64,000 nt of DNA, from the sequence record PV467749.1, one strand, 5' to 3'. The position numbers and the translations under genes are program-made. The DNA comes from a phage. Shown here in pieces: positions 1 to 52,355 of the stretch (the first letter of the stretch is position 1; each line of letters starts with the position of its first letter). Below the pieces are notes generated by a model. It saw only the letters and a program-made list of their open reading frames with translations. It ran no database searches and was not told the origin of the DNA.

Positions 1-1806
<1,806 letters not shown>

Positions 1807-1822
1807 TCACTTTCCCAGATTT

Positions 1823-1830
1823 GATAAATA
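1823..1830 (+). promoter_or_regulatory. late-promoter-like box GATAAATA (copy 1 of tandem TTGATAAATAATAT motif)
   Basis: TTGATAAATAATATCATA resembles the extended late promoter seen upstream of capsid gene. Confidence 0.35.
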
Positions 1831-1886
1831 ATATCATAGAGATCAGGGAATATTGCCTTAAATTTAAATGTGGTTTATATTTTTTG

Positions 1887-1894
1887 ATAAATAA
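1887..1894 (+). promoter_or_regulatory. late-promoter-like box GATAAATA (copy 2), about 45 nt upstream of structural gene 1940
   Basis: TTGATAAATAATATTAAG; spacing to ATG like other late promoters in window. Confidence 0.4.
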
Positions 1895-1939
1895 TATTAA
1901 GCAGGGTGTTCCTGCACAAAATTTGACAAGGAGATTTTT

Positions 1940-2539: not shown

Positions 2540-2554
2540 TAGGGGGACTACAAT

Positions 2555-3244: not shown

Positions 3245-3261
3245 TAAATTAAAGATAAAAG

Positions 3262-3291
3262 AAAAGGAGAGCTTTTGCTCTCCTTTTTTTA
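3262..3291. terminator. bidirectional intrinsic terminator between convergent genes
   Basis: AAAAGGAGAGC-TTTT-GCTCTCCTTTTTTT; A-run upstream, T-run downstream. Confidence 0.85.
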
Positions 3292-4014
3292 TTTGTATGA
3301 ACGGAACCCTTCAGGTAAACCAGGTAGATTCTCTAACCCTTCGTTCGCATTCACTAGCTTTACGTCATAATCATCACTGAAATCATCCGTAGCTAGTTTA
3401 CGCCCCATGTCTCTAACGAAGTTGTCAATAATTTCTTCTTCGTCATTACCTGGATGACCTTCCGCTTTTAACTTTTTCCAAAAGTATTCATTATAATCAA
3501 AAACAAATTCAACTTCATTTGTTTCTGGATTAAGTACTACATCCAAATCAATCCAAGGTTCTTTACGTAAAGTAAAGATTTCCTTTGAATACTCTTGTTG
3601 TGTAATCTCTTCATAACGATATGCAAACTCGATAGCTTTAAGACGTTTGTCATCACCATCAGGCATTAGTTCGATTACTTCCATATCATACTCTTTTTGA
3701 GTAATTGCACCAGTACTTAATTTAGCATCAAGTAATTTTACATTATACTCATCACGGGTAATCTTGGAATACTTCAATTGTACATCTGCCTGTGCTATTA
3801 GATAATCAAGAGTTTCTAATACATTGTATTTCTTTTTGATATCCAACTGTGCTACATCAACTTCATATGGTGTTAGATATGTAAGTTCTGCAACTAACAT
3901 ATCAGCTTCATAATCATCGTTATAGTAGTATGCTTTCGCAATCTCTTTCGCTTTACCAGAAAGTCCCCAATGAGCGGGGACCATCCAGAAAGGAATAAAC
4001 CTTTTTTTAGCCAT
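3289..4014 (-). CDS. hypothetical protein with three SHOCT-like repeats (IT.xEY...K..L)
   Basis: ORF track start is TTG at 4041; first in-frame ATG at 4014 (MAKKRF); repeats SKITRDEYNVKLL / GAITQKEYDMEV / EEITQQEYSKEI. Confidence 0.6.
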   Translation of the reverse strand: MAKKRFIPFWMVPAHWGLSGKAKEIAKAYYYNDDYEADMLVAELTYLTPYEVDVAQLDIKKKYNVLETLDYLIAQADVQLKYSKITRDEYNVKLLDAKLSTGAITQKEYDMEVIELMPDGDDKRLKAIEFAYRYEEITQQEYSKEIFTLRKEPWIDLDVVLNPETNEVEFVFDYNEYFWKKLKAEGHPGNDEEEIIDNFVRDMGRKLATDDFSDDYDVKLVNANEGLENLPGLPEGFRSYK

Positions 4015-34740: not shown

Positions 34741-35229
34741 ATGAGTAAATGGGAAATCAAAAATACCGACGAACAATTTTTTAAAGAAATTAAAGAATTT
34801 GAAGGTACTATTGCGTATCAGAAAAAACTTGGTTATTTTAAAAATGATAAGTTTTGGGTATATAAAGACAGTCTAGGTCTTGATACCATTGGTTACGGTC
34901 ACCTTGTACTTAAGGGTGAAAGTTTCAAAAATGGACTCACTGAAGCAGAAGCTGATGCTCTCCTTATAAAAGATGCTCAGACCGCTTACAATGACGCAAA
35001 ATCAATCTATGATCAATTTGGAATGACTGCTCCAGTACAGGTTCAGCGTGTATTGTGGTTTATGGTGTTCCAAATGGGTAAATCAAAAGTTTTAAATTTC
35101 AAAAAAGCGATGGCTGCTCTCGGTCGTGGTGATTATAAAACTGCTGGTAAAGAAATGCGTGATAGTTCGTGGTACAAACAAACCACATCCAGAGCGGAGA
35201 AGATGGCTCGCATCGTCGAATCCGTATAA
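34741..35229 (+). CDS. endolysin, T4-lysozyme-like (GH24)
   Basis: EFEG...DTIGYGH...WFMVFQMGKSKVLNF...SSWYKQTTSRAEKM; RBS GAGGA; TATAAATA about 17 nt upstream of ATG. Confidence 0.9.
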   Translation: MSKWEIKNTDEQFFKEIKEFEGTIAYQKKLGYFKNDKFWVYKDSLGLDTIGYGHLVLKGESFKNGLTEAEADALLIKDAQTAYNDAKSIYDQFGMTAPVQVQRVLWFMVFQMGKSKVLNFKKAMAALGRGDYKTAGKEMRDSSWYKQTTSRAEKMARIVESV

Positions 35230-35244
35230 TAAAGGAAACACATA

Positions 35245-35640
35245 ATGGCAATTGTTTTTAAAGGTTTTTCAACTCCAGTAGTTGGAAGAACTGAAACATT
35301 GTATGACAGTGAATTGGTTCGTCAGGATTTAATGAATCATTTCAATACAAAAAAAGGTGAACGTGCATTTGATGCTGATTATGGGTTCATTGCGTGGGAT
35401 TTGCTATTTGAATTGGATGGTTATAATACAATCAACCTTTTGGAAGCAGATGCCCGTAGAATTATTAGCTTGGACCCACGTTTAAGCTTAAAGAAACTTC
35501 AAATATCAAGAATTGAGTACGGTTATCAGATGGATATAGTACTTGAATATGTTGTTCTCAATACTCTTGAAGAATTAACTATAGTTTTTGATGCAAGAAG
35601 TAACAACAGAATGGCTACCTATTCTGTATCATCTTTGTAA
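35245..35640 (+). CDS. baseplate wedge protein (T4 gp25-like)
   Basis: GERAFDADYGFIAWDLLFE vs T4 gp25 GSRPFDPEFGCDLSDQLFE; 131 aa; terminator downstream. Confidence 0.85.
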   Translation: MAIVFKGFSTPVVGRTETLYDSELVRQDLMNHFNTKKGERAFDADYGFIAWDLLFELDGYNTINLLEADARRIISLDPRLSLKKLQISRIEYGYQMDIVLEYVVLNTLEELTIVFDARSNNRMATYSVSSL

Positions 35641-35712: not shown

Positions 35713-36477
35713 ATGAAATATGCAACAACCAGATCAACAAAATACAAATTTGTAACCAACGCCATTAGAGTGCATGGTATGCGTTATGATTATAGTATGG
35801 TTAAATATCATAATGCTAAAACAAAGGTGTGGATCGGATGTGAGAAGCATGGGTTTTTCCTACAAACACCAAATGACCATACATGTGGCAAAGGATGCAT
35901 GGAATGCTCGGTTGAGTATAATGCGAATCGTCAGAAAAGTCCACAGAACTTTATAAATTTTCTTAATAAGGCTAATTTAAAGTTTAGAAATAAATTTGAT
36001 TATAGCACAGTAGAATATGTTAATAATAAAACTCACATATCCATAATATGCCCAACACATGGGTCTTTTTTACAAAGACCTGATAATCATTTGTCAAGTA
36101 AGTATGGTTGTGAGAAATGTATGATTGAATCAACGCAATCAAAAGCAGTAACTGATATTGAAAAAATGATATCTTTCACTAATTATGTTAAAGAAAAGCG
36201 TTTTGATGATTGTAGAAACATATTAACTTTGCCATTTGATTTTTATATTGAAGATTTAAACTTGTGTATTGAATATGATGGTGAACAACACTTTCGATGT
36301 TCTGAACATTGGGGTGGTGACAAATCGCTAAAACAAACTCAACACAATGATAAAATTAAAAACACGTACTGTGCTGACCATGATATTAACTTACTTCGTA
36401 TCAAATACGATGAAGATCATATCATCGTACTAAAAAAGTACTTTTATGATAATTTTAACATAATATTAAAGGATTAA
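35713..36477 (+). CDS. homing-endonuclease-like protein: two zinc-ribbon-like modules + C-terminal PD-(D/E)xK (DUF559/Vsr-like) nuclease domain
   Basis: Repeats YDYSMVKYHNAKTKVWIGCEKHGFFLQTPNDHTCGKGCMEC and FDYSTVEYVNNKTHISIICPTHGSFLQRPDNHLSSKYGCEKC; C-terminal LCIEYDGEQHF...LLRIKYDE. Confidence 0.8.
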   Translation: MKYATTRSTKYKFVTNAIRVHGMRYDYSMVKYHNAKTKVWIGCEKHGFFLQTPNDHTCGKGCMECSVEYNANRQKSPQNFINFLNKANLKFRNKFDYSTVEYVNNKTHISIICPTHGSFLQRPDNHLSSKYGCEKCMIESTQSKAVTDIEKMISFTNYVKEKRFDDCRNILTLPFDFYIEDLNLCIEYDGEQHFRCSEHWGGDKSLKQTQHNDKIKNTYCADHDINLLRIKYDEDHIIVLKKYFYDNFNIILKD

Positions 36478-36481
36478 TACA

Positions 36482-39400
36482 ATGTCACAACAAAAAAGAC
36501 AGTCTAATTTATATAGTGGTGAGGATTGGACTCAAGTATATGAAAGTTTCTATAAAATCAATCTTACGGCATATGATTTTGATACCATTCGTCAAAGTAT
36601 GATTGATTATCTACGTGCTACGTACCCCGATTCTTTCAACGATTGGATCGAAAACGACCAGTTTATCTTTATTCTAGATACCATTTCTATGCTAGGCCAG
36701 AACTTAGCATTCCGCATGGACTTAAACACCCGTGAGAACTTCCTAGATACTGCTACTCGTCGTGCATCAGTACTGAAACTCGCAAAAATGATTTCTTACT
36801 CTCCACGCCGTTCATATCCAGGTCGTGCAGTTGCTAAATTAACAGAAATAAAAACCAACCAAGACGTTCGTAATAGTTTTAACGAATCACTTAAGGATAA
36901 AATCATTCGTTGGAATGACCCAATGGACACAAACTGGTATGAGAACTTCATTCTAGTTATGAACAGTTCATTTGTCAGTACTAACCAGTTTGGTAATCCG
37001 GTTAAACGTATCGATATCAATGGTGTTTCTCGTCAGCTATATCGTATGAATACAATTCCAATGTCAGCACCAAGTCTTCCATTCACAGCTACAGTTAATG
37101 GTGAATCGATGACATTTGAAGTTGTCAACCCTGATATTACCGCAGTTGGTGTTGAAGAGCGTCACCCTGAACCACAAGAGCAAAAATATATCGTTTATCA
37201 GAATGATGGTAACGGATTTAGTTCTCCAAATACTGGTTTCTTCGTTTATTTTGTTCAAGGGACATTGACATACCAAGATTACCAATATAATATTCGTGAA
37301 GAAAACCGTATCCAAGACATCAACGTAGATAATATCAACGAAACTGATGTTTGGGTTCAGGAAATCAACGAAGATGGTATTGTACGTACTAAATGGACCA
37401 AAGTTCCATCTATGGAAAGTATCGCATACAATACTGTTAACCGTCAACTAAAAACAATCTTTGCTGTCACAACTCGTGATAAAGACCAGATTACTATTAA
37501 GTATCCTGATTCTCGTAGTGGTGTTGTTCCTCGTGGGACATATCGTGTATGGTATCGTGTTAGTAATGGTGAAACATACAACATTAAAACGTCTGAAATC
37601 CAGAACAAAAGTGTAAAATACACCTATAGAACCAAAACACAATCAAGCTACGAATCCAGTACTTTGGATATTCGTTTCACATTGCAATATGAATCAGATC
37701 GTGCACAAAGTGCAGAAACAATTGAACAAATTAAGGCTCGTGCTCCACAAATGTATTACACTCAAAACCGTTTTGTTAACGGCGAAGACTATAACATTGC
37801 TCCGTTGAGTTTGGGTAACACAGTTCTTAAATCTAAAGCAATTAACCGTTTATATAGTGGACAGTCACGATTCATTGATATTAATGATCCAACTGGTAAG
37901 TATCAAAACACTGATGTGTTTAGTGATGATGGATCAATGTATCAAGAAAACACACAATTTAATAAATCTTTACAATTACCAACTACCAAAACAAATGCTA
38001 GTATTGTAATTGATAATATTCAGCCATTGATTGGTGAGAATGCTGTAATCCAACGTTATCAAGCATATCCACCGAATACAATTGGTATTGAAATTCAACA
38101 AAAATGGACACCTGAATACAATTCTAATTACGCAACTAATACGTATGGTCGTATTATGGGGGCAACAGGTAACGTATTCGGAAATTATCAAGTTGGTACG
38201 TTGATTAAGTTTTCAAATGCCGGAACTACTGTGTGGGCTAGTATTGTTAGTGTTCTTGATAATGGATATTACGTTCTAAGTACTTCAGTTTCATCAAATA
38301 TGCAAGCACAAGAGTACATTTTACAATACAGAACACGTTTTAATAGTGTCGAAGTGCAAGCAATCGCCGCAATGCTTGATAAAAAGACAGATTTTGTTAT
38401 TATTCATGATAAAGAAACAACTTCTTGGATTCCATTAGAAATCAGTACTGATGAAGATACTATTTCTTATAATGGAAATGAAGTTCTTGTTATGATTAAC
38501 ATCAAATATACTGCTGAAACATGGGAATTTGATGCGAATGGCGTTGAATATGTGTTCGTTGGTGGTGATAAAGTTCGTTTTTACTTCGTTTCTTCTAAAA
38601 AGATAACTGATATTAGTACTGGTAGTGTTCAAAGTGACAAAATTGAAATTTTATCATCAAATACCACAAGCAATAGTAATGCTGGGTTGACAAGTAACAT
38701 AGATTTCCAAATTTATGACACAATTCAACAAGAAAACGGGTATCTTGATGGTTCTCGTGTGGTTATCACCTCTGAAAACGTTGATAGTAATGGAATCCCA
38801 CTAGAACCTAATCAATTCAGAGAAATTGTACCAAATTGGACTGGTGAAGATTCAGTTAAATATGGTGGTATATTGGTTTTCCAAGAAAACGATGATTTCA
38901 CTATATCAGTACTGTCATTACCGAACGATACTTTCACTATTCTTGATTCTTCATGGGCTTATACAATGGATCAGGCACTTGCAGAAACTAATGCGTATAA
39001 GAGAAGTGAATTTGTTCGCAACAATGCTATTCGCTCAACAACATTGAGTGGTATCTATAGTAAAGGTTCAGGCTTTATGGTTGGCTTTAAATATGATGGT
39101 AAATATTACTTCATTGAACAAACTGTTGGTAATAATAATGACCGTTTAAACCAATTAATTGAGAACTTGACCTATTCTGATGATACAACTGCTGCAACTC
39201 CTGAACTTGCGTTTTATCGTGCTATTGTTAATATCGGTACTAATGCTGATGTTAACCAAAAGTTAGATTATTATGGTTATAAAGATGTAACTTCACAATA
39301 TACCGTAAAAACGAATGCAAGAACTGGTATTGATTTCCACTGGAAACATTATGCACCAGATGATAATCGCATTGACCCAAGTAGAACAAACTTGATTGAC

Positions 39401-39943
39401 ATGTATGTATTAACCAATTCATACAAAACTGAAGTTGATGTATGGTTGAAGAATGGAACACAAGGTAATATGCCTAAACCGCCAACATCTGTTGAATTGA
39501 AAGACATTTTTAAAGAAGTTGAACAAAAAATAGTCATCAGTGACAGTATTATTTGGCATAGTGCAGAATATCTACCATTATTTGGTGCGAGTGCTGCTGA
39601 AGATTATAAAGCAGATTTCAAAGTCGTCAAATTGCCTAACAGTACAATGAGTGATGATGAAATTCGTCAAAATGTCGTAGCACTAACTAACGAGTATTTT
39701 AATGTTGACAACTGGGATTTTGGTGAAAGTTTCTATTACACAGACTTGTGTACATACATTCACTCCCAATTAGGACGACATATTAGTACTATTGTTATCG
39801 TAGCTCAAAACCCTAACTCTAAATTTGGTTCACTATTTGAAATACCTTCACGTTCTGACCAGATTTTCTTAAGTACTGCATCAGTTGATAACGTACAGAT
39901 AGTCAATTCCTTGGCTAAGAGTAACATTAACATTGGTTCATAA
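36482..39943 (+). CDS. baseplate wedge protein (T4 gp6-like N-terminus), 1153 aa
   Basis: N-terminal YDFDTIRQSMIDYL region resembles T4 gp6 YDFEGSRLNVLCDLL; follows gp25-like gene; terminator downstream. Confidence 0.8.
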   Translation: MSQQKRQSNLYSGEDWTQVYESFYKINLTAYDFDTIRQSMIDYLRATYPDSFNDWIENDQFIFILDTISMLGQNLAFRMDLNTRENFLDTATRRASVLKLAKMISYSPRRSYPGRAVAKLTEIKTNQDVRNSFNESLKDKIIRWNDPMDTNWYENFILVMNSSFVSTNQFGNPVKRIDINGVSRQLYRMNTIPMSAPSLPFTATVNGESMTFEVVNPDITAVGVEERHPEPQEQKYIVYQNDGNGFSSPNTGFFVYFVQGTLTYQDYQYNIREENRIQDINVDNINETDVWVQEINEDGIVRTKWTKVPSMESIAYNTVNRQLKTIFAVTTRDKDQITIKYPDSRSGVVPRGTYRVWYRVSNGETYNIKTSEIQNKSVKYTYRTKTQSSYESSTLDIRFTLQYESDRAQSAETIEQIKARAPQMYYTQNRFVNGEDYNIAPLSLGNTVLKSKAINRLYSGQSRFIDINDPTGKYQNTDVFSDDGSMYQENTQFNKSLQLPTTKTNASIVIDNIQPLIGENAVIQRYQAYPPNTIGIEIQQKWTPEYNSNYATNTYGRIMGATGNVFGNYQVGTLIKFSNAGTTVWASIVSVLDNGYYVLSTSVSSNMQAQEYILQYRTRFNSVEVQAIAAMLDKKTDFVIIHDKETTSWIPLEISTDEDTISYNGNEVLVMINIKYTAETWEFDANGVEYVFVGGDKVRFYFVSSKKITDISTGSVQSDKIEILSSNTTSNSNAGLTSNIDFQIYDTIQQENGYLDGSRVVITSENVDSNGIPLEPNQFREIVPNWTGEDSVKYGGILVFQENDDFTISVLSLPNDTFTILDSSWAYTMDQALAETNAYKRSEFVRNNAIRSTTLSGIYSKGSGFMVGFKYDGKYYFIEQTVGNNNDRLNQLIENLTYSDDTTAATPELAFYRAIVNIGTNADVNQKLDYYGYKDVTSQYTVKTNARTGIDFHWKHYAPDDNRIDPSRTNLIDMYVLTNSYKTEVDVWLKNGTQGNMPKPPTSVELKDIFKEVEQKIVISDSIIWHSAEYLPLFGASAAEDYKADFKVVKLPNSTMSDDEIRQNVVALTNEYFNVDNWDFGESFYYTDLCTYIHSQLGRHISTIVIVAQNPNSKFGSLFEIPSRSDQIFLSTASVDNVQIVNSLAKSNINIGS

Positions 39944-39949: not shown

Positions 39950-39976
39950 AAGGCGTTCTTCGGAACGTCTTTTTTA
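39950..39976 (+). terminator. intrinsic terminator after gp6-like gene
   Basis: AAGGCGTTC-TTCG-GAACGTCTT followed by TTTTT. Confidence 0.8.
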
Positions 39977-39979
39977 TAT

Positions 39980-39987
39980 CATAAATA
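39980..39987 (+). promoter_or_regulatory. late-promoter-like box CATAAATA upstream of giant ORF
   Basis: atatCATAAATAaatc about 36 nt upstream of ATG 40024. Confidence 0.4.
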
Positions 39988-40023
39988 AATCAAATGAATG
40001 AACGAATTATATGGAGTCCAAAA

Positions 40024-43000
40024 ATGACTAATAATTTTAAGTTTCAACCTACACAGATGGCTGAAGCAGTACAGAAGAAGCTTTTCATAAAAAGATTGCC
40101 TGAGTGGATGCAAGGCTTAGAAGATATTCAGAAAGTCAGTGATGATGTTATCCAACAATGGTTTAATCCGGCTGAAAACGAATTAGTTGACGGCTACATT
40201 GGTGACATGGGTTCTCCGGCAGCAGCAGGGAACATCTTCTTACACGAGTCAACAGTCGCACGTCAACTATATCAGTTGTCCACTGCGTATGTCTCAAGAA
40301 ATGATGACTCCAGCATTCGTTCAATTCAATTTTATGATGATCTAGTTGGCTATATGAATCATTACGGGGCACTAACCGAAAATGAAAGCCGTTTGTTTAA
40401 TGGTAAGTTCTATTCATGGACCCCACCAATTAACCCTAACAAAATGAACAACTACAGTTCATATCTATGGGATTCCAAGAATAGCTATAATATCGCAACT
40501 CCAGATTATATTGTAATGGAACGTGGTGCAGAAAATGGAAACACTTGGTCACTACAAAACTTCTGGTACACATTAGGTGAAACTTTAGAAGATGGTACAA
40601 TCCTAACTGAAGAACTAATGCAAGATTCCCGTTTTGTTCGTGCTCGTGCTCCAATTATCGAATACAATAAAAATATCGAACTAATGAACTACGGTACTAA
40701 ATTCCGTGGGACAGTTGATTTGTTCTCTGATATTATTAAACCTGAAGATATCGTACAAAAAGATATTAACAGCGGTATACGTATTGATGGTATTATTCCA
40801 CAAGATGGTATGCGTATTCTTTTCACCAGTATTGGTAACAATGGTGAAAACAACCGAATTTATAAAGTATATGTTAAACGTATGCAAGATGGAACACGTG
40901 TGTATGGTCTAGCATTAGACCCAGACGAAGAATCTGAAAGCCGTCCGAGTGGTGAACCACAAGATGGTGACGTAGTTCTTATTATCAAAGGTAATGAATT
41001 TGGTAACAGTTCCATGTATTGGGACGGTTCTCATTGGATTCAAGCACAGTCTAAAACTTCTGTGAACGTATTTCCACAATTCCAATTGTATGACCGTAAT
41101 GGTGTTAAACTAAACAACACTACTACCTATCCATCAAGTACTTTTACTGGTTCTTCATTATTTGGTTTTAAAATTAACTATAATTATGCAACCGATAGCG
41201 TTTATGGTTATAACATTGAACTGGGTGATTACAATTATTACACCTATGAGAATTTCCTACAATCAACTCGTTATACCTACGAGCATTTGGGTGTGGAAGT
41301 TGAAATTGATGGACTATATTACTATAACGTAATTGGTGAAGGTAATACAATGAACCTAGAAACTGATTGGGTTCGTAGTACTGAATACTCCAAACAATAT
41401 GTTAAACAAACTCCACAGGTTGAACGTACAGTAATGTTCCGCGTGTTCAGTACTGTTTATGACATGGAAAGTTTCAAAGATCCAGTTGAAGGAATGTATG
41501 CTTATGTAATTGAAGTTGACAGAACTTATCAATATTACAAAGCAGAACGTGAAACATATCTTGATTGGCATGTTATCGTTGGTGATGGGGTACAAAGCGT
41601 TAAGTACAATCATACATTTGAATTGGCACAAAAAGTACTAGATAATTCTGATGATATTATCGAACTAGTTGTTGATGGTGTGGAAATAAAAGAATACACC
41701 AAAACTGTAGTTAATAATCAAGTACAAAGTATTACAATTGATAGCTCTGTTGATTTGGATGAAGATTCTGTTGTACAAATAAGAACTTATAGTAGCACTA
41801 TCACTCCTAATAAAGAGTTGGGTGCATATGAAGTTCCAATTAACCTACAAAATAACCCATATAATTCAAACATTGAATACATCAATCAAGGTGATTACAC
41901 CCTGCACTTCCAAGATATTATTCAAAAGAATATTACATCTGGTTCTGCTGATGACTTTAACAATTACGAAGAACGTTTGGCTGCTGGTTTGGTTAATAAT
42001 GGTGTAGGCACTAAAATTATTCAAAACGAAGCGTCCATGTTACCACTAATGGCACATACCGCTAATGAAGATATTGATTTGTTTGAATCAATCATGTTTA
42101 TGCAAGCAGAATACTTCCGCTTCATTAACAAGTTCAACACTCAAATGCTTCGTTTGTATGAAGAAGACCCAAGTGCTTTTCTTGGTAATAGTGCATCAAA
42201 CATCGTAGATGCGATTCTAACAGCTATTAATATGGGACGTGATAGTTCATTCCCATTCTACTATGACAACGTTGCAAGCACTGCTGGGTTTATTCGTGCA
42301 TTTGTCCCACCAACTCCACAGTTCTTGGGTATTTTGCAAGCTTATACACCACAAAAAGCAACATTCTTAACTGCTGGTAGTAAATCTAGCTGTTATAATA
42401 TCAGTCATACTGGTGTTATTTCAAAAGCATACCGTGTTATCAATGGTGTTGATAAAATGGATGACGTAGTTTTTGAATTGGAAAATCGTATCTTTAATAG
42501 TATTGACCTTACTTTCAAGGATATTGATTATAAACCAGTACTAAACAGTGAAGACCTATTCCCAACTCCATATTTCACTGGTACTGATTATAGTGCAGAA
42601 GAAAAGAAAACTCTATTACTACGTGGTTACATTAACTTCACAGCAACCAATGGTATTAGTAACAGTACTCATGATTATGATGCAAATAACTGGAGAACTT
42701 GGAACTATACTGGTAGTTATTATGTTGTTGATGGTCAACGTACTGAAATTCCTGCTCGTGGTTCATGGCGTGCAATCTATACTGACCAATATGGCACATA
42801 TCGTCCAGCAACCCATCCGTGGGAAATGATGGGCTTCTCTCAACGTCCTACTTGGTGGAACCAAGAATACGAACCAACCGCAGTTCAAGTTGGTGAACGT
42901 GAGGGTGATGTTGTTTATGTGTATGAAGCACTAGTAATGAATGAAAATGGTGATTTGGTCCCAAGTGGATTGTGGGATATTGATGGTACTATCGGTGACA

Positions 43001-46000
43001 GCAGCACTGGTACTATTTTGTCCGGTGAACGCCGTGGTCAATATGACAAATACAAGCGTTTCGGTGTACAGCCATTTAAAATCACTAAGACTGGCGAGAA
43101 AACCAGTACTGGTATTGATATTTGTGAAGTTGAGTATATTGCACCTGAAGTTTTAGGTCTTGTTAGTGGTAATTTAGATCATCGTGCAGAACCGTGGGCT
43201 TATGGTGACATGGGTGACATGGAATTCACTTACATGAACACTGCGATGTTTGCTTATGACCAAATGCTTCTTCTATACAAAGCAAAACCAGCACAGTTTG
43301 CAAACTATTACTGGGATACCCGTAATGATAACCTTAAACCAGTTTATACTGATGGTTCACAGTTCCTTTATGGTGAAACCCGTAAGCGTCTAAACTTTGA
43401 CAGTGCTACATTAGTACATGGTGAGAAAAATACCCGTACTATCGGTTATCAAATGTTTGTTAGTGACTATTTGATGTATCAGAATAAGAACATTACCACC
43501 AAATACGGTGACGTTGTTCGTTCTTCTTATGTCAATGTCGCTCACAAAATTGGTGGCTTTACTAAAGCAGACCAATTGACATTCACTGCTAAATCTTTCG
43601 GTTTGATTTCACAAGAAAACCAAACTATCGGTCTAGTTCGTTCCAATAACATTCGCGATGAGCAAATGAGTGCAGTAAAAATTACTTGGAATGGTAGTGC
43701 ATATCAAATTGATGGTTATGATTTAGTTGGTGCTAAATTTAAATATAAAATTCCAGTTAAAAATGGAAGAAAAGTAACTCTTAAATTGGAAGACAGAACT
43801 GTTGTTCATTACAATGAATGGAAATCTGAAGGTACATTAGAATATGGTAAAATATTCAATACATACCAAGAAGTTTATACTTTCATTTGTGGATATGGTG
43901 AATATCTAAAAGAACATGGCTGGATTTTTGAAGATGTAAATGATAGTGGTGCTCAACAAGACTGGACAACTATTGCTAAAGACTTTGTTATTTGGAGTCA
44001 GAATAATTTAAGTACTGGTGAGTTCATCTCCTGTACTCCAAGTGCAGCTAATGCTAAATTTGGTGCAGATTTTGGTTCAGTTCAATCTGTTACACAGAAC
44101 AGTGGTGGTGTTTGGTCACTACTCGATGATGAAAACCAAGGTATCCGTCAATATGAAATCGAAACTTCGCGTATCGGTAACGTATTCACAGTGAGAACTA
44201 CATCTGAATCACAAAAACGTATGGCGTTGATTCGTTTGAGCCTAAGTTCATATGAACACGCAGTTGTTTTTGATGATAAAACTATCTTTGGTGATTACAT
44301 TTACCAACCAACTTATGGTGCTATTCAAGAATTGATTAAAATGTATGGTTACATTACTGGGGCATGGACTGGTCGCCTACAAGCACCTGGTTTCATTATC
44401 CTAGAAGCAGGAACTTTACCATCATTTGAAAAATTAGTAACTGATTTTGAATTATATTATAATAGTGAAACTCCTGTGAGTGATGTTCAGCTTCAAGAGT
44501 TATCAAATCACTTGATTGGCTATCAAACTCGTGATTATCTACAACGTATGATTAGTAGTGATGTTAGTCGTGTTGATTTCTATAAAGGATTCATTCATGA
44601 CAAAGGTACTAACCAAGTAATGGAAAAAGTACTACGCGTTTCTAAATCTTACGACACTGATGAATATAAAGCACTACAGGAATGGGCATTTAAGATTGGC
44701 ACTTATGGTAATATCAATGGTAAGAAAAATCTACAATTTAAACTAATCAATGACCAATTTAAACAACAACCACAGATGGTTTCGTTTGATGTTAATGCTA
44801 CATCAAATGGTACTGGTAATGGTATTGTTTATTACGGTGAACAAGGGGTTGACTCACGCTGGATTACTCGTCCAAATGGTAAGTTTTCATTCCCAATGCG
44901 TAGTGGAAGAAGTGAGAATATCCAACTTCCAGACATTGGCCCAGTAACACTAGATGAAATTTCATACGTTACTAAAGATTTCAGTACTGCATATAATGAT
45001 CGTATCAATTATATGAATAACAGTGGTGAAATACCAGATTCTGTATGGATGTTTAAAGATGGTAATGATTTGTGGAATATTTTCGAACTAGTAGACACTG
45101 AAGTTGAGATGCTCTCTATCGTTCCAATTGAAAATACCGATGTATATGCAGAACAATTCTGTAAAGTAACTCTAAGTGATGATATCCCACTAAATGATGG
45201 TGATTATTATTACTTTGTTGATGAAACTAACTTTATGCCAGATACATTGACTATAGAAAGTCAATATTATACTGCGGGTAATGACCCTAGAGTTATGGTA
45301 GTTCCGTTTGACACTTCAATAACTATTGACTTCACTGATCCTGATACTCGCCCACGCTTGTATCGTTATGTTTCACGATTCAGTACTGAAGAGATGCGTC
45401 AGGAATACATTGACAGAAAATATAGTTTTAAAGCTCCACAAAGTACTTTGTTTGACCGCCCAACCACATATGATGAGCGTACTAACATTACTGCGTTGTA
45501 CCTAAACGTGTTTGACCCAATCAACGGTGTTATTCCTGGTGCAGCGATGCAGAACGTTACCTACACATCTCCAGTTGACCCAGCACAATACAACAGCAAT
45601 GGTGAATTGATTCAAGCATGGGGTGCTGATAAAGTTGGTCAGGTTTGGTGGAACACCAGCACTGCTTTCTACTTAGATTACACTCGTGCAATCTATGATG
45701 CTGATGGTAATGTGGATGTTGATGCAACAAATGAATATAAACGTTATAACTGGGGCAGATTGCTACCGCACAGTACTGTTGATGTTCTTGAATGGGTATG
45801 TTCGCCAGTGGAACCATATAACTGGGACAAATACTGTAAAGACGTTGCTAACAAAAATAAAAACAATACTATGTACCTACCAAGCGGAACCGCATTGGAA
45901 GATAATTATAGTACGTTCTTAGAATATGATAGCACAACTGATACTTATGTTACAAAATACTATTTCTGGGTTCGTGATACAATCTATGTACCACCATTGC

Positions 46001-49000
46001 ATTCCAGAACTAAATCTTGTACTGATATTGCTCGTATTATTAAAGAACCAGCACAGCTTAACATTCCTTGGTTTGCACCAATCAATGAAAGCTCGTTCAT
46101 TCTAAGTAATATGCAATTTGAAGTCAACGATGACACAAGTATTTTAACTGTTTCTTATTACATGGATAATACTGAAGTTATTAAACATGACCAGTATCAA
46201 TTATGTAAAGAAGGTGATAGCTATAACTTCAATCCATCAATCTGGACTTCTATGTGGAATTCTATGATTGGTCAAGAAACTACTGAATCAGGAACTGTTA
46301 TTGATTTACTATATCCTTTAGTACCAAACGGTTTAGGTTCTAATAAGACTTGGTTCCAAGATGTAATTGAAGCTCGTAGAAACTTTGTAGAAAGTGCAAA
46401 TAACTATTATCGCTCACAGAATATAACAACTAACACTGTTCTAATGGACGAAGTGTTTAATGTTAAAACTACTGAAGTTAACCCGAATGAAGTATCATAT
46501 CGTGTACTAACTTACAATAGTGAATTAGTCATTGCACCTGAAAGTGACAAGTTCAAAGAAAACGACGCAGTACTAGTAAGTACTAGTGGTGTATTACCTA
46601 ACCCACTATCAACTAGCTCTGTATATTTTGTGCATATTGATGCTAATGGTTATATTCATCTAATGAATAGTCCATCAAGTGCTGGTAGTGTGGTTACCAT
46701 TACATTGGAAAACCGTGGTGAAGGTCAACAGAAAATGATTAAACAATCAGACTATGTTGAAGCACTAGGAACTTCATTGGACATGACCCAGTACTGGTCA
46801 CTAGCAGATTGGTATGATATTGGTTACGATAAAAATACTGCATATACACAAGAATCCAGCCTAGAAGATGCAAACACTAAGAACTATCAAGTTGGTGACA
46901 TTATCAGAATTACAGATGTTGATGGCATCTGGACATTGTACATTAAAGCACAATCACGTGATTCAGTTTACTGGAAAGCAATTGGTCGTGAAAATAGTAC
47001 AGTTGAATTGAATGATATGTTATACGCTGACTATACAGTTCGTGATGCTAATGGTTCGTTGAGTAATCGTGAGATTAACGTTCGTAAAGCACTAGCTTTA
47101 TTGAAGAACTCATTCGACTTACATCAGAGTGAAATTGTGTTTGATATGGTTAAGTATGTTCACGTAGAACAAAGCGTTGTTGATTGGGTATTCAAAACAT
47201 CTTACATTTATATTGTAGGTTTAGAACAATCATTAGTACAGAACTATTCCAACGACAACTTGATTAATCAAATCGTTGAGTACTTTGAAGAAGTTAAACC
47301 ATATAGAACTAAGATTCGTTCCCAGATTGAACAGAAAACATCAGATGATGATTTAATTAAAGGTTTGTGTAATGATTTAGATCCTAATGGCTATATATTT
47401 GCAGATGGGACTTGGGTTAAAACGGAAAAAGACATTTGGGATTATGAATATGCTCAATTCAATGAGGTAACTCAACGTTGGGAGCAAGTTGGTGAATTGC
47501 CAAGTGATTTCGTAACACCTAATCGCCGTTTCCAAGAAATTGATGTTATCATGCACTACGACAACACTCAATGTAAACCAAATGATAATTTGGCAAGTGT
47601 TGATGTATTGGAAGAAGTGAATAAGAAATATCAATCTAATGCACAAGATGTTGTTAGTAATTTTGAATTACAACGTTACAAATATACATTCCCAGAATAC
47701 AGTGATGAAGATTTCGACCTATTGGTTGCTTATCAGATGCAATTGTATTACCCAGAATTGAACGTAACTCTAGGGATTGCTTACGGTGTTAACCAATGGT
47801 ATGCAGACCATGCAGATGATTTGGTAGCAACCGCAGAATTCACAGAAACGTTGAATCGTGTATATAAAGAATCAACACAAAATGAAATGTTTAATGACGT
47901 AAATCATTACGTTCAGTATAACACACTCTCTAACCGTTTGAAATTGTACACAGGTGCAGATGATGAAGTAATTCATGATGAAGTTGGATGTGGATTTAGT
48001 GGGTTAACCTATGATGATAATCCAAGCACCAGACTACCGTTTGGTTATGCATCCAGTACTGATTATAACTTTGGTTACTTTGAAGTTAGTAGTGAGTTGT
48101 ATAAAAAGTATGTTTCTTTAATTAAAGAAAACAATACTACTGCAACTGATGATGAAGTTAGAATTATACTTGAAGTTGAATATGGTGTTTATTCATATCG
48201 CCATGTAGATGAAGATGGAAATCAACGATTCTACAATGACGCAATTCATGTATTGTCCGGTATGCGTGGTTTGTATGACAAAGATGCTACCGACCATTAT
48301 GAAAAGGCTGAAGAAATACTAAGTAGAATGCCTATTGATATTCATGCATTTACTATGATGCCACGAAAATATGTTTATGTTAATGTTAATGGTGTATACG
48401 AGAGTATCCCAGATGACCAAAGCATTGATGATTTCATGGAAGACAAATTCATAACTGACGGTCAACTAGTTCAATTGGCAGAAATAAATCTTGATGACTT
48501 ACCTCTTGATAGAAATAACCCAATGTACAGTGATTATCAGCACATCCTAGATAGCATCACCGATGCTAAGTACTACGATGATATGAATGCATTTGATAAC
48601 CTAGCACTTGAATCACAAACTTCCGAGTTAAAATGGGAAGTTGAAGGTGACGAAGTAGATCCGTACATAATCGACATTTCTGATATTAACCCATCAGGAA
48701 GAAAGATTGGTCAGATTCGCTTCACAGTTGATGGTTATGGATTCAATAGTGTTTCACTAGTTCAATTGAGAGACAATAGTAGATATAAAACTGAAGGTAT
48801 GGTTATTATCAACCCTTATAAAACAACAGAAGCAATTGTTAGTATTCCTTCTTACGCTAAGATTGAAAATGATATTAGTAAATCATACAGTAAGTATGAT
48901 GAAAAATACTTCTATAAAATTAAATCAATTGTTAGTGATACAGAAGCTGAAGTAATTGACAATACCCTATCTGATGGTGATAAGGTTATGATATTCACAA

Positions 49001-49995
49001 CTGATGGTGAAGATTATGTGAGATACCAAAACAATGCATGGGAAACCATCTTGAGTGTATCAAAAATCAAAACTGACACCACACCAACCTTGTACACAGT
49101 AAGAAACACTGCGAACGGAACTGTAGAACTACTAGATAGTACTGGAGTTGTACTTCGTTATGATAACATCACTAAACAACAACAAAATGAACCAGCAATA
49201 CCTCTAGCATTGAACATCGTTCGTATTAGAACCTTTGCTGATCCAGAATTCTTGGTTGATGGTGTTAAGTTGTATGAAACAAATAGAAACTATGCTATCG
49301 ACGCAATGAACTATGAAGTATTCTACGACACAACACTATACGGTGGTTCTTATAATGATGGAATTACACCAGATGACGTTGATGTTTGGGTAGTGTCTAA
49401 CGAGATATTTGAAGTTGATGGTGTTACCATTGATAACGGATATAACTTACCAATTACTGGTGCAGGTGTTCTTAGTGAGTTAGTGAGAACCAAAATGACT
49501 GATAGTGTGGAAATTAACGTGTTCGAGTATGATGTTGGTATTATTCAACCAGTACTGAATACTGAAGGGGTATGGGAATATGCATATCCACTAGTTAGTG
49601 ATACATATATTGGTGTAGTTGGTGGAACAGTAACTAACATTACTGCTATCAGTGAAGAAAATGCTACTTATGTTTCACAACCAGATTCAGTTAGTCCATA
49701 TAGTGTTACTAATAATGTTCTATCTGGTGCTGGTGCAAGTATGAATGATATTATTTCTCTTGGTTTTGAAAAAGTTGAAGTACGATTTGCAAATAACTTA
49801 CTCCGTGGGGTAATGTATAGTGCAGAACACGACTTTAAAGAGAATGTGACATATTCATTTAATGGCTTGAACTTAGGTAAAGTTAATTTACTAAAACGTT
49901 ATAGTGTTAACAGTTATCCAATCGAACTATCTGTTTACTCCGATAGTTTGCAAATAAGTGGTAATGACATTAAAAATCTATTAGAAGTTAAATAA
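40024..49995 (+). CDS. giant virion-associated protein (~3,320 aa), probable baseplate/tail component
   Basis: Uninterrupted ~10-kb ORF; start chosen at ATG (MTNNFKF) with GGAG RBS and CATAAATA late-like box about 36 nt upstream; track ORF starts 30 nt earlier without RBS. Confidence 0.85.
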   Translation: MTNNFKFQPTQMAEAVQKKLFIKRLPEWMQGLEDIQKVSDDVIQQWFNPAENELVDGYIGDMGSPAAAGNIFLHESTVARQLYQLSTAYVSRNDDSSIRSIQFYDDLVGYMNHYGALTENESRLFNGKFYSWTPPINPNKMNNYSSYLWDSKNSYNIATPDYIVMERGAENGNTWSLQNFWYTLGETLEDGTILTEELMQDSRFVRARAPIIEYNKNIELMNYGTKFRGTVDLFSDIIKPEDIVQKDINSGIRIDGIIPQDGMRILFTSIGNNGENNRIYKVYVKRMQDGTRVYGLALDPDEESESRPSGEPQDGDVVLIIKGNEFGNSSMYWDGSHWIQAQSKTSVNVFPQFQLYDRNGVKLNNTTTYPSSTFTGSSLFGFKINYNYATDSVYGYNIELGDYNYYTYENFLQSTRYTYEHLGVEVEIDGLYYYNVIGEGNTMNLETDWVRSTEYSKQYVKQTPQVERTVMFRVFSTVYDMESFKDPVEGMYAYVIEVDRTYQYYKAERETYLDWHVIVGDGVQSVKYNHTFELAQKVLDNSDDIIELVVDGVEIKEYTKTVVNNQVQSITIDSSVDLDEDSVVQIRTYSSTITPNKELGAYEVPINLQNNPYNSNIEYINQGDYTLHFQDIIQKNITSGSADDFNNYEERLAAGLVNNGVGTKIIQNEASMLPLMAHTANEDIDLFESIMFMQAEYFRFINKFNTQMLRLYEEDPSAFLGNSASNIVDAILTAINMGRDSSFPFYYDNVASTAGFIRAFVPPTPQFLGILQAYTPQKATFLTAGSKSSCYNISHTGVISKAYRVINGVDKMDDVVFELENRIFNSIDLTFKDIDYKPVLNSEDLFPTPYFTGTDYSAEEKKTLLLRGYINFTATNGISNSTHDYDANNWRTWNYTGSYYVVDGQRTEIPARGSWRAIYTDQYGTYRPATHPWEMMGFSQRPTWWNQEYEPTAVQVGEREGDVVYVYEALVMNENGDLVPSGLWDIDGTIGDSSTGTILSGERRGQYDKYKRFGVQPFKITKTGEKTSTGIDICEVEYIAPEVLGLVSGNLDHRAEPWAYGDMGDMEFTYMNTAMFAYDQMLLLYKAKPAQFANYYWDTRNDNLKPVYTDGSQFLYGETRKRLNFDSATLVHGEKNTRTIGYQMFVSDYLMYQNKNITTKYGDVVRSSYVNVAHKIGGFTKADQLTFTAKSFGLISQENQTIGLVRSNNIRDEQMSAVKITWNGSAYQIDGYDLVGAKFKYKIPVKNGRKVTLKLEDRTVVHYNEWKSEGTLEYGKIFNTYQEVYTFICGYGEYLKEHGWIFEDVNDSGAQQDWTTIAKDFVIWSQNNLSTGEFISCTPSAANAKFGADFGSVQSVTQNSGGVWSLLDDENQGIRQYEIETSRIGNVFTVRTTSESQKRMALIRLSLSSYEHAVVFDDKTIFGDYIYQPTYGAIQELIKMYGYITGAWTGRLQAPGFIILEAGTLPSFEKLVTDFELYYNSETPVSDVQLQELSNHLIGYQTRDYLQRMISSDVSRVDFYKGFIHDKGTNQVMEKVLRVSKSYDTDEYKALQEWAFKIGTYGNINGKKNLQFKLINDQFKQQPQMVSFDVNATSNGTGNGIVYYGEQGVDSRWITRPNGKFSFPMRSGRSENIQLPDIGPVTLDEISYVTKDFSTAYNDRINYMNNSGEIPDSVWMFKDGNDLWNIFELVDTEVEMLSIVPIENTDVYAEQFCKVTLSDDIPLNDGDYYYFVDETNFMPDTLTIESQYYTAGNDPRVMVVPFDTSITIDFTDPDTRPRLYRYVSRFSTEEMRQEYIDRKYSFKAPQSTLFDRPTTYDERTNITALYLNVFDPINGVIPGAAMQNVTYTSPVDPAQYNSNGELIQAWGADKVGQVWWNTSTAFYLDYTRAIYDADGNVDVDATNEYKRYNWGRLLPHSTVDVLEWVCSPVEPYNWDKYCKDVANKNKNNTMYLPSGTALEDNYSTFLEYDSTTDTYVTKYYFWVRDTIYVPPLHSRTKSCTDIARIIKEPAQLNIPWFAPINESSFILSNMQFEVNDDTSILTVSYYMDNTEVIKHDQYQLCKEGDSYNFNPSIWTSMWNSMIGQETTESGTVIDLLYPLVPNGLGSNKTWFQDVIEARRNFVESANNYYRSQNITTNTVLMDEVFNVKTTEVNPNEVSYRVLTYNSELVIAPESDKFKENDAVLVSTSGVLPNPLSTSSVYFVHIDANGYIHLMNSPSSAGSVVTITLENRGEGQQKMIKQSDYVEALGTSLDMTQYWSLADWYDIGYDKNTAYTQESSLEDANTKNYQVGDIIRITDVDGIWTLYIKAQSRDSVYWKAIGRENSTVELNDMLYADYTVRDANGSLSNREINVRKALALLKNSFDLHQSEIVFDMVKYVHVEQSVVDWVFKTSYIYIVGLEQSLVQNYSNDNLINQIVEYFEEVKPYRTKIRSQIEQKTSDDDLIKGLCNDLDPNGYIFADGTWVKTEKDIWDYEYAQFNEVTQRWEQVGELPSDFVTPNRRFQEIDVIMHYDNTQCKPNDNLASVDVLEEVNKKYQSNAQDVVSNFELQRYKYTFPEYSDEDFDLLVAYQMQLYYPELNVTLGIAYGVNQWYADHADDLVATAEFTETLNRVYKESTQNEMFNDVNHYVQYNTLSNRLKLYTGADDEVIHDEVGCGFSGLTYDDNPSTRLPFGYASSTDYNFGYFEVSSELYKKYVSLIKENNTTATDDEVRIILEVEYGVYSYRHVDEDGNQRFYNDAIHVLSGMRGLYDKDATDHYEKAEEILSRMPIDIHAFTMMPRKYVYVNVNGVYESIPDDQSIDDFMEDKFITDGQLVQLAEINLDDLPLDRNNPMYSDYQHILDSITDAKYYDDMNAFDNLALESQTSELKWEVEGDEVDPYIIDISDINPSGRKIGQIRFTVDGYGFNSVSLVQLRDNSRYKTEGMVIINPYKTTEAIVSIPSYAKIENDISKSYSKYDEKYFYKIKSIVSDTEAEVIDNTLSDGDKVMIFTTDGEDYVRYQNNAWETILSVSKIKTDTTPTLYTVRNTANGTVELLDSTGVVLRYDNITKQQQNEPAIPLALNIVRIRTFADPEFLVDGVKLYETNRNYAIDAMNYEVFYDTTLYGGSYNDGITPDDVDVWVVSNEIFEVDGVTIDNGYNLPITGAGVLSELVRTKMTDSVEINVFEYDVGIIQPVLNTEGVWEYAYPLVSDTYIGVVGGTVTNITAISEENATYVSQPDSVSPYSVTNNVLSGAGASMNDIISLGFEKVEVRFANNLLRGVMYSAEHDFKENVTYSFNGLNLGKVNLLKRYSVNSYPIELSVYSDSLQISGNDIKNLLEVK

Positions 49996-49996: not shown

Positions 49997-50030
49997 AAAA
50001 AGGAGAGCATTTGCTCTCCTTTTCTTTTTT
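49997..50030. terminator. bidirectional terminator between giant ORF and ClpA gene
   Basis: AAAAAGGAGAGC-ATTT-GCTCTCCTTTTCTTTTTT; near-identical stem to terminator at 3262. Confidence 0.8.
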
Positions 50031-52317
50031 ACGCAATAACTTTTTCTACTGCTTTAGTTCGTTTAGGTTTGATAGCCAATTTACCATCAATCACATCAAA
50101 CGTTACGTTACCACCATTAACCAGAGAACCACACAACATCTCTTTAGCTAGTGGAACACGGATGTTTTGCTCAATAGTGCGTTTCATTGGACGTGCACCC
50201 ATCCCAACTTTAACACCATTTGTTGCCAACCACTCACGTGCCGCTTTGGTTAGTGAAACTTTAACTTTGCGGTCTTTGATTTGTTCATTCAAACTTCCCA
50301 TGAACTTATCAATGATGCTGTCAATCGCTTCGCTGCTTAGGTCTTTGAATGTCACAATACTATCGATGCGGTTGATGAATTCAGGTGGCAAGAATGCTTT
50401 AATCGCTTTATCTTGTGCTGTATCACTACCGCTCATCCCAATACTACGCTTGGTTGAATCTGCTGCACCAAGGTTAGTTGTCATAATAACAGTTACGTTA
50501 TTGAAGTAAACAGTTTTACCTTGTGAACCAGTCAAACGTCCTTCGTCCAGAACCTGTAGGAAGGTTAGTAGTACTTTACGATCAGCTTTTTCGATTTCAT
50601 CAAGCAACAGTACTGCATTCGGGAACTGCTCAATCTTGTCGAGTAGCAGACCGTTACCGGAATCGTGACCAACATAGCCTGGAGGTGAACCAATCAGTTT
50701 AGCAACAGTATGTTCCTGTGAAAACTCGGACATATCGAAACGAATCAGTTCAGAGCCAGTTGCATCAGCCAGTGCTTTGGTAATTTCAGTTTTACCAGTA
50801 CCAGATGGCCCAACAAACATGAATGCACCTTGAACACTTGATTTATCACGCAGACCAGCACGAGCTACCATCACGTTATCAACCAGTTTCTGTACTGCTT
50901 CTTCTTGACCGTATACACGAGAACGTAGTGCATCTGGTAGATTACGCATACGCTCACTTTCAGTGCAAGCAACCACGTTAATATCTAGGTTTGCGATACC
51001 TGCAACAACTTCTTGAATCAGTGCAACAGTGATGATGTTATCATCAGTTTCACGAGAACGTACTTTCGCTGCCGCCGCATCCATTAGGTCGATTGCTTTG
51101 TCAGGGAAGTGTTTGTTCTTCAGGAACTTATCACTTAGTGTAATAACTGCATCCATTGCTTCAGTACTGAACTCTACGTTATGGAAAGTTTCATAAGTAG
51201 ATTTCAAACCATTCACAATCGCACGGGTTTCATCAATTGTTGGCTCAACTACATCAATTTTCATGAAACGGCGAGTTAGTGCACTATCTTTTTCGATGTT
51301 TTTACGATATTCATCGTAAGTTGTTGCACCGATTACACGAATCTCACCACGAGATAGTGCAGGTTTGAGCATGTTACTCATATCCATAGAACCGTTGCTT
51401 GCTGAACCAGCACCAACCATAATATGGATTTCATCGATGAACACAATAGTGTTTTCACGTTTCTTCAGTTCTTTGAGTAGGTTATCGATACGTTCTTCGA
51501 ACTCACCACGGTACTTAGTACCAGCAGTCAGTGCACCTACGTTCAGAGACAGAATTTCAACATCTTTAAGATGCTCTGGTACTTCACCATCAGCGATTGC
51601 CTGTGCTAGACCATCAATGATTTGAGTTTTACCAACACCAGCTTCACCAGTCAGGATGGCATTCTTCTTAGTCTTACGGGCCAGAGTTTCAATCAGTGCA
51701 GAAAGCTCTTTCTGGCGACCAATCATTGGGTCAAGTTTACCTTCTTTTGCAAGTGCGGTTAGGTTAGTGGTGTAATCTTCTAAACCTTTTTGTTTGGACG
51801 ATGGTTGCTGTTGTGCCACTTTTTTCTCCCCAGTTGGCTCATCACTAATGCTTTGAAGGTTGATTCCGTTGTCGATTGCTTCTACGTGCTTCTGTAGAGT
51901 TCGTGCTGCTTCAGTACAAGTGATACCCTCTTCACGCAATGCTGCTTCTAGTGCAGTATTTGGGAAGGACAAACACTCAAACAGTACAAAATAAGCATCA
52001 ATTGAGAAATCATCACGTTTAAGTTGCTCAATTACTGATTTCTTAGAAAGTTCCTGAACTACACGGTTCACGAGAAGTGATGTGCGGTTCGCTTCATCAC
52101 CATCAGCACTTTTAGGTGCATGTGGGAATGTTGTATTCTTCAGATATGCAATCAAACGACTGTGTAGGTTGTCTGCATCGATGTTCATATCTTCAAATAC
52201 TGCTTTGATGCTATCGATTGTCAGTACTGTAGCACTTAGATGGTCAATAGTCAAGAATGTATGACCCAGAGAAGTTGCCAGTTCGTCGCTTTTTTTGAAT
52301 AATTGGGTAAGATTCAT
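50029..52317 (-). CDS. clpA: ClpA-family AAA+ unfoldase (two ATPase domains plus N-domain)
   Basis: Walker A GEAGVGKT and GPSGTGKT; SIGM loop at the position of the ClpA IGL ClpP-docking loop; C-terminal MGARPMKRTIEQNIRVPLAKEMLCGSLVNGG matches E. coli ClpA; start at ATG (MNLTQLF) with AGGAGA RBS; consensus sigma70 promoter upstream. Confidence 0.9.
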   Translation of the reverse strand: MNLTQLFKKSDELATSLGHTFLTIDHLSATVLTIDSIKAVFEDMNIDADNLHSRLIAYLKNTTFPHAPKSADGDEANRTSLLVNRVVQELSKKSVIEQLKRDDFSIDAYFVLFECLSFPNTALEAALREEGITCTEAARTLQKHVEAIDNGINLQSISDEPTGEKKVAQQQPSSKQKGLEDYTTNLTALAKEGKLDPMIGRQKELSALIETLARKTKKNAILTGEAGVGKTQIIDGLAQAIADGEVPEHLKDVEILSLNVGALTAGTKYRGEFEERIDNLLKELKKRENTIVFIDEIHIMVGAGSASNGSMDMSNMLKPALSRGEIRVIGATTYDEYRKNIEKDSALTRRFMKIDVVEPTIDETRAIVNGLKSTYETFHNVEFSTEAMDAVITLSDKFLKNKHFPDKAIDLMDAAAAKVRSRETDDNIITVALIQEVVAGIANLDINVVACTESERMRNLPDALRSRVYGQEEAVQKLVDNVMVARAGLRDKSSVQGAFMFVGPSGTGKTEITKALADATGSELIRFDMSEFSQEHTVAKLIGSPPGYVGHDSGNGLLLDKIEQFPNAVLLLDEIEKADRKVLLTFLQVLDEGRLTGSQGKTVYFNNVTVIMTTNLGAADSTKRSIGMSGSDTAQDKAIKAFLPPEFINRIDSIVTFKDLSSEAIDSIIDKFMGSLNEQIKDRKVKVSLTKAAREWLATNGVKVGMGARPMKRTIEQNIRVPLAKEMLCGSLVNGGNVTFDVIDGKLAIKPKRTKAVEKVIA

Positions 52318-52355
52318 GTATTCTCCTAAATGAGTAGTCACTCTAATTAATAAAC

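Follow-up and report, generated by a model that had tools for sequence, protein, structure and literature searches.

The wedge of the T4 baseplate is a (gp6)2-gp7 heterotrimer in which the N-terminus of the third subunit lies in a bundle, as it does in a second solved wedge. The wedge of A-1(L) has the composition (gp31)2-gp32, with residues Met1-Asp107 of gp32 located in a helical bundle and with gp32 numbered directly after the gp6-like gp31 (PMC10966104). Solved contractile baseplates have wedges built from a pair of gp6-like proteins plus a third subunit, which in myophages comes from the gene following the gp6-like one and contributes its first ~100 residues to the bundle (PMC10966104). 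In RaK2-like genomes gp6, gp25, and gp53 have been recognized but gp7, gp8, gp10, and gp11 have not (CBB table, PMC5259590), so that the third wedge subunit is unaccounted for in this group. The same paper used the "largest ORF" as a landmark with which to orient all RaK2-like genomes (PMC5259590). No gene is larger than this one in any RaK2-like jumbo phage, and it takes up ~3% of the genome. Neither a solved RaK2-like baseplate structure nor a role for the encoded giant protein beyond "structural protein" was found in the literature.

The giant gene was analyzed here in a stretch of phage DNA of 64,000 nucleotides (sequence record PV467749.1), referred to as the window. Its product resembles the T4 gp7 class (T4 gp7, TssG, P2 gpI, and A-1(L) gp32) in that the gene lies directly after a gp6/TssF/gpJ-like gene and in being a late virion protein which forms a non-repetitive multi-domain chain with a predicted helical N-terminus. 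However, no sequence, profile or fold similarity to this class was detected, and the giant protein is three times larger than T4 gp7, itself the largest wedge protein of T4 (1032 aa).

Orthologs and presence in virions

By megablast of the gene, the window was found to belong to a RaK2-like jumbo coliphage, with nucleotide identities of 99.2–99.5% to phages WPEC5, Ecwhy_1, vB_Ec-M-J, fEgEco12, and CMSTMSU and of 82% to the Asteriusvirus phages 121Q, PBECO4, and phAPEC6. The giant protein shares 86% amino acid identity with its 121Q ortholog, gp582, which is annotated as "virion structural protein," and nothing material separates it from the "largest ORF" protein of RaK2-like phages in general (121Q gp582, phAPEC6 gp245, CBB_236, PA5oct gp128, Atu_ph07 gp180). 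An end-to-end match was obtained with phrog_10938 (E = 0, 5477 bits; residues 11–3330 of a 3333-aa form against positions 1–3324 of a profile of 3324), a family filed by PHROG under 'head and packaging'. The ortholog in EJP2 (OQ411014) is named 'D-alanyl-D-alanine carboxypeptidase', a name for which the analysis gave no support.

Presence in the virion was established by MS for orthologs in three phages (phAPEC6, CBB, and PA5oct). CBB_236 was detected with 21 peptides (PMC5259590) and phAPEC6 gp245 with 17 (PMC7247149), while PA5oct gp128 is annotated as ESI-MS/MS-detected. The phAPEC6 protein is listed at 381.88 kDa, which is a predicted mass (PMC7247149), and its MS coverage was 7.6% compared with 24.2% for the gp6-like protein (PMC7247149), values which are not quantitative but would fit one copy of the giant protein per wedge. 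Given these earlier depositions and MS detections of orthologs, the existence of the gene and its association with the virion are already known. The analysis bears out the original prediction that the baseplate cluster encodes a late virion protein.

Reading frame and start codon

One frame on the plus strand is open over 39994..49995, corresponding to 3333 aa when counted from the first ATG (ORF listing). At the base composition of the window (G+C 0.32–0.42, about 0.36), a stop-free run of 3333 codons has a chance probability of ~1e-102. The gene and its flanking signals are as follows:

39950..39977, plus strand: intrinsic terminator of the gp6-like gene, hairpin plus T-run (terminator scan)
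39980..39987, plus strand: CATAAATA box, candidate T4-type late promoter element of the NATAAATA class (position and conservation)
39994..39996, plus strand: upstream in-frame ATG, the mechanical ORF start, 6 nt past the promoter-like box and without an SD
40013..40016, plus strand: GGAG ribosome-binding site, 7 nt 5' of ATG 40024 (sequence read)
40024..49995, plus strand: giant gene, 3323 aa plus stop; virion structural protein, ortholog of 121Q gp582, phAPEC6 gp245, and CBB_236
49997..50024, both strands: bidirectional intrinsic terminator immediately behind the stop codon (two sites in the scan against 0 expected)

ATG 40024, the second in-frame ATG of the frame, is likely to be the real start codon, as GGAG is found 7 nt upstream, the annotated start in 121Q is the homologous codon and the phrog_10938 match begins at residue 11 of the 3333-aa long form. 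It is favored again by the position of the promoter-like box, since T4-like initiation a few bases past this box would leave ATG 39994 leaderless; the upstream ATG is probably unused. The product from 40024 has 3323 aa, with a computed mass of 380.3 kDa and pI of 4.5.

At least 80% of the gene is covered by 35 phage records, mostly as a single ORF (megablast), and the protein aligns to that of 121Q without gaps (3323 vs. 3323 aa). Synonymous sites are saturated between the two genes (dS ~1.05), with a dN of 0.087 and a dN/dS of 0.08 overall; values per 200-codon bin range from 0.02 to 0.13 and are slightly higher in the last 700 codons. Judged from these codon comparisons, purifying selection acts on the gene over its entire length. 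In some GenBank records the ortholog is split, with 11 ORFs in MH494197 (CMSTMSU), nine in NC_027399 (K64-1), and three in OR699182 (SD-6_S16), which would be in keeping with a frame produced by joining several genes via collapsed frameshifts, an outcome considered in the original prediction. However, dozens of independent genomes and hundreds of metagenomic contigs carry the gene in one piece, the alignment to 121Q is not only gapless but low in dN/dS in all bins, and the phAPEC6 protein detected by MS is the one listed at the predicted full mass. The likelihood of such an artifact is negligible, the intact copies and the constrained alignment effectively refuting it, and the uninterrupted ~10-kb ORF first noticed in the sequence is confirmed as one real gene. 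As intact copies are so many, the split records of CMSTMSU, K64-1, and SD-6_S16 probably reflect errors (frameshifts) in those records.

Transcription signals

The late promoter of T4 is TATAAATA, which NATAAATA resembles. NATAAATA occurs 19 times in the window, and 15 of these copies were found 15–60 nt upstream of a gene start, defined as an SD and ATG opening an ORF of at least 80 aa, compared with 0.48 expected (binomial P ~4e-21). This signal is visible only once position relative to gene starts is considered, as the sites are not over-represented in number; plain counting of TATAAATA in the window likewise gave no enrichment, nor did that of the CATAAATA octamer (4 against 5.95 expected). 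Based on its placement, NATAAATA, whose first base varies, appears to be the late promoter motif, T4-type, used by this phage, and the late-promoter-like box reported earlier in front of the giant gene could be located as the CATAAATA at 39980-39987. A gp55-like late sigma factor is encoded in the clade (121Q annotation; also the Atu_ph07 paper). Examples of NATAAATA occur at 1886, 21446, 23335, 28671, 34716, 35677, 39980, and 58067 on the plus strand and at 58040, 21383, 15515, 14306, 11464, and 11117 on the minus strand.

The segment from about 39952 to 40035, which spans the terminator stem, promoter box, SD, and first codons, differs from 121Q (L001 11959-12042) by a single base, which converts a G-T to a G-C in the terminator stem at 39950..39977 such that it still pairs. 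Such near-identity beside coding DNA with a dS of ~1 suggests that the regulatory region is strongly constrained. The terminator at 49997-50024 is common to the giant gene and the convergent ClpA/B-like gene. Promoter box, SD, and terminators would together define an independent late transcription unit.

Gene order around the giant gene

The genes of the surrounding module are listed below:

Upstream of the giant gene, first in order: gp53-like gene (Pfam 20.8 bits, borderline against a cutoff of 21)
Next after the gp53-like gene: 751-aa gene, no family match; 121Q ortholog annotated as virion structural protein
32040-34703, plus strand: gp5-like hub gene, OB fold and C-terminal lysozyme domain (family search)
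34741-35229, plus strand: second, separate lysozyme-family gene, 162 aa, after the gp5-like gene
35245-35640: gp25-like gene (PF04965)
35713-36477, plus strand: HNH/DUF723 homing-endonuclease gene between the gp25-like and gp6-like genes
36482-39943: gp6-like gene, 1153 aa (phrog_10646/phrog_219)
50029-52341, minus strand: ClpA/ClpB-like gene encoding two AAA+ domains, converging on the giant gene

Past the ClpA/B-like gene lie a gene for a 502-aa virion protein and a gp15-like gene. The giant gene does follow gp25-like and gp6-like genes, as had been proposed, with the HNH gene between those two. In 121Q the HNH gene carries the annotation 'protein associated with group I intron', whereas PA5oct, Atu_ph07, XacN1, and the Tara contig lack it at that position.

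The order gp25-like, gp6-like (roughly 970–1320 aa), giant was found to be kept in 121Q, PA5oct, Atu_ph07, XacN1, and a Tara Oceans contig, with protein identity of 22–27% in the most distant of these. It is thereby firmly supported that the giant gene accompanies the gp6-like wedge gene throughout a very wide clade, as an obligate partner. PA5oct has a gp10-like gene three genes (two small ORFs) downstream of the giant gene, echoing the T4 order 6-7-8-9-10. The Tara scaffold (L006 10001-23680) is syntenic with the coliphage and carries, in order, a gp53-like gene, a 754-aa gene, gp5-like, gp25, a gp6-like gene with DUF8360, the giant gene, and a Collar-domain fiber gene. The ClpA/B-like gene lies within the tail/baseplate module only in the enterobacterial members examined; it is conceivable that its product could serve as a chaperone for large virion proteins.

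Family breadth and protein anatomy

A homologous-protein search returned 230 relatives of 2800–5600 aa, while an exhaustive phmmer search with aa 1–450 extended the family to 845 or more clusters at 50% identity (637 with E ≤1e-10). Members of the family are about 3000–7300 aa in length, the longest having 7307 aa, and are found in phages RaK2, K64-1, CBB, GAP32, BF, fHe-Yen9-04, and Vibrio 2.275.O, and further in PA5oct, Atu_ph07, Phosso, SCTP-2, XacN1, and RsoM2USA. The family spans the whole RaK2-like superclade and reaches from jumbo phages of enterobacteria into metagenomes of the ocean. No short, annotated distant relative was present among the best 150 phmmer matches, all of which were giant members or fragments. 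The following regions of the protein were distinguished:

aa 1-2450 (40024..47373, plus strand): core conserved family-wide, ~2450 aa (homolog alignment, occupancy)
aa 21-46 (40084..40161, plus strand): N-terminal helices, low-confidence in the monomer model (AF2 secondary structure, pLDDT)
aa 450-580 (41371..41763, plus strand): beta-rich insertion, in only about 55–60% of members (occupancy profile, AF2 secondary structure)
aa 1412-1529 (44257..44610, plus strand): highly conserved yet with pLDDT 30–41, helical (conservation profile, AF2)
aa 1701-1816 (45124..45471, plus strand): variable linker, site of large marine insertions of FG-GAP repeats (occupancy, alignment)
aa 2451-3323 (47374..49992, plus strand): lineage-specific, faster-evolving C-terminal third (alignment, dN/dS, C-terminal search)

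The core consists of blocks at aa 1–450, 580–950, 1050–1700, 1800–2150, and 2250–2450, with variable or insertion-prone sites near aa 150 and at 450–580, 1250–1270, 1700–1816, and 2150–2250. Parts of the aa 1412–1529 stretch rank among the most conserved; as modeled, the stretch is a possible protein-protein interface which may fold only against a partner. The C-terminal 874 aa match solely the same gene, collinear, in 72 enterobacterial RaK2-like phages, at 38–77% identity when ten near-identical relatives (at least 99%) are left out. In these alignments evolution is faster in the C-terminal third than in the core, without the shuffling usual for receptor-binding domains. No paralogous domains were found by BLAST of the giant protein against all other ORFs of the window.

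Marine homologs of 4500–7300 aa (P0094, P0099, P0197, and a Tara scaffold) carry CBM_5_12 and FG-GAP insertions at variable sites. The CBM_5_12 matches scored 32–41 bits against a cutoff of 26.2, and that of P0094 falls near the 1250–1270 site by mapping of BLAST coordinates; the FG-GAP repeats sit within the 1700–1816 insertion. A sub-threshold match to the T7-tail-fiber N-terminal domain was also obtained in these homologs. The insertion of such modules suggests that the variable sites are exposed.

Structure prediction and similarity searches

AlphaFold2 (AF2) models were obtained for aa 1–1200 (pLDDT 84.3, pTM 0.77) and aa 1201–2400 (pLDDT 77.9, pTM 0.48) from alignments of 23 sequences each, both being multi-domain, beta-rich bodies with helical segments. 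At the N-terminus, aa 1–70 have a pLDDT of 26–69, and helices are predicted at aa 21–46, 78–82, 104–113, and 121–124 of the monomer.

Foldseek with the aa 1–1200 model gave no match at E ≤0.001, the best being 7rfv with E 0.1. T4 gp7 was absent from every structure-match list, and there was no fold similarity to solved structures of the gp7 class. The best fold matches, all weak, were to N-terminal domains of tailspikes and fibers, namely CBA120 TSP4 (7rfv) and T7 gp17. The match to the N-terminal region of TSP4 covers <10% of the model and may represent a generic small domain shared by chance. That region comprises an anchor domain plus T4 gp10-like domains, according to the RaK2 adsorption-complex paper (PMC10253068). 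No significant structural or sequence relation was found to phiKZ gp87 and gp27 (PDB 9xqs, 9xqd) or to the DUF4815 protein of phi812 (9euf), which at 900–1100 aa are far from the 3300 aa of the giant protein; phiKZ and phiKp24 belong to clades other than the RaK2-like one.

Sequence searches of Pfam, NCBIfam, and PDB, in which the protein alone and a profile of 18 sequences served as queries, returned nothing significant; the best hit, to GCN5 (E 0.13), was taken as chance. For five diverse members, the first 250 aa had no match in Pfam or NCBIfam at E up to 10. With hhalign, a 28-sequence family profile gave a probability of 0.4% against T4 gp7 and nothing against T4 gp10. For the modeled aa 1–2400, a fold without relative among solved structures is firmly supported at the level of prediction. 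The original prediction had envisaged a possible fusion of several wedge or fiber-network functions, with domain-by-domain searches and a self-comparison for repeats as the means of checking it. No recognizable constituent emerged from Foldseek, hhalign or the profile searches, and self-BLAST detected no internal repeats. The fusion is not demonstrated, as no constituent T4 protein was recognized, the one weak TSP4 match aside.

Proposed role in the baseplate wedge

Taken together, the synteny, the solved wedges, and the lack of a recognized gp7 single out the giant protein as the leading candidate for the third subunit of the wedge, and its huge conserved body as that for the material of the enlarged outer baseplate. 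It is proposed, with a probability of roughly 0.5, that it is this subunit, the positional counterpart of gp7, present once per wedge and building an enlarged outer baseplate. Wedge location, stoichiometry, gp7 equivalence, and docking role are what we infer. A late promoter of its own, of the NATAAATA type, would drive the gene, with transcription stopping at its own terminator, and the resulting 380-kDa multi-domain, non-repetitive virion protein would take the position of T4 gp7 (TssG, P2 gpI, A-1(L) gp32). Its N-terminal helical arm (about aa 20–125) would bundle with the enlarged gp6-like protein, present in two copies; the helices at aa 21–46 are a candidate for the arm joining the gp6-like pair, judging from the analogous (gp31)2-gp32 wedge in A-1(L). 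The conserved body of ~2400 aa, with a single copy in each wedge and six in the virion, would form the intermediate and peripheral baseplate of very large tails, with the variable loops and the C-terminal third facing outward to dock the fiber apparatus. In distant relatives these outward sites would carry the carbohydrate-binding modules.

It is possible, though doubtful, that the giant proteins are a highly divergent gp7-class family whose single-chain core of ~2400 aa, made up of folds without solved relative, replaces all the intermediate and peripheral baseplate proteins of T4 (gp7, gp8, gp9, gp10, and gp11). If true, complex baseplates would have been reached by a second architectural route, independent of that of T4.

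A baseplate component need not be a gp7 equivalent, and the giant protein could instead be a clade-specific peripheral add-on which decorates a conventional wedge containing an unrecognized small gp7-like subunit. The lack of any fold or sequence link to gp7 would fit this, as would the virion proteins of 251 aa, 751 aa, and 502 aa without assigned role held in the same module. However, strict adjacency to the gp6-like gene persists in very distant relatives, and gp7-class proteins are notoriously divergent outside a short N-terminal segment, which makes an add-on rather improbable. A role as a fiber, tail decoration or receptor-binding protein, such as that of forming the base of branched fibers or the 'hairy' whiskers of CBB and phAPEC6, is suggested by the tailspike and fiber domains among the weak fold matches (CBA120 TSP4, T7 gp17), by the CBM_5_12, FG-GAP, and sub-threshold T7-tail-fiber matches of the marine homologs and by the faster evolution of the C-terminal third. 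The features of a trimeric fiber or tailspike (a repetitive or beta-helical shaft, a shuffled C-terminus) are not those of the giant protein, whose C-terminus is collinear within the family and not shuffled with receptor-binding proteins of other phages, whose 2450-aa core is conserved in phages of hosts as far apart as E. coli, Agrobacterium, and marine bacteria and which has no repeats, fiber Pfam family or coiled-coil-like signature. Its compact, confident AF2 monomer (pTM 0.77, pLDDT 84), without repeats, fits a monomeric scaffold and not a trimeric fiber. As the family occurs in phages both with and without whiskers, and the fibers of RaK2 have been assigned to gp098 and gp526-534 (PMC10253068), a fiber role is unlikely.

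Giant size, presence in the virion, and the PHROG category 'head and packaging' could be reconciled with an internal or ejected protein in the manner of the giant virion RNA polymerase of N4, or with a tape measure acting as tail-length ruler. Such a role is very improbable: the AF2 models are globular, beta-rich, and multi-domain with no long helix, no polymerase or other enzyme family was matched in Pfam or NCBIfam, and the gene is located inside the baseplate operon. Measured tails are ~110–130 nm, and under the length-per-residue rule for helical tail rulers a 3323-aa helical ruler would give several times that. The ejected-enzyme and tape-measure readings were rejected on the globular models, the lack of an enzyme match, and a tail far too short.

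Should the giant protein turn out to take the place of gp7, this would reveal how baseplates of contractile tails are scaled up for 350-kb phages and would identify the platform on which the branched multi-depolymerase fibers of RaK2 and K64-1, which are of therapeutic interest, are docked. The breadth of the family, the definition of the 2450-aa core, and the confident models without solved relative were absent from the literature searched, and confident AlphaFold models with no PDB relative make the protein a good target for cryo-EM. For annotation, the analysis provides the start codon at 40024, a late-promoter motif, and a warning on fragmented deposited records.
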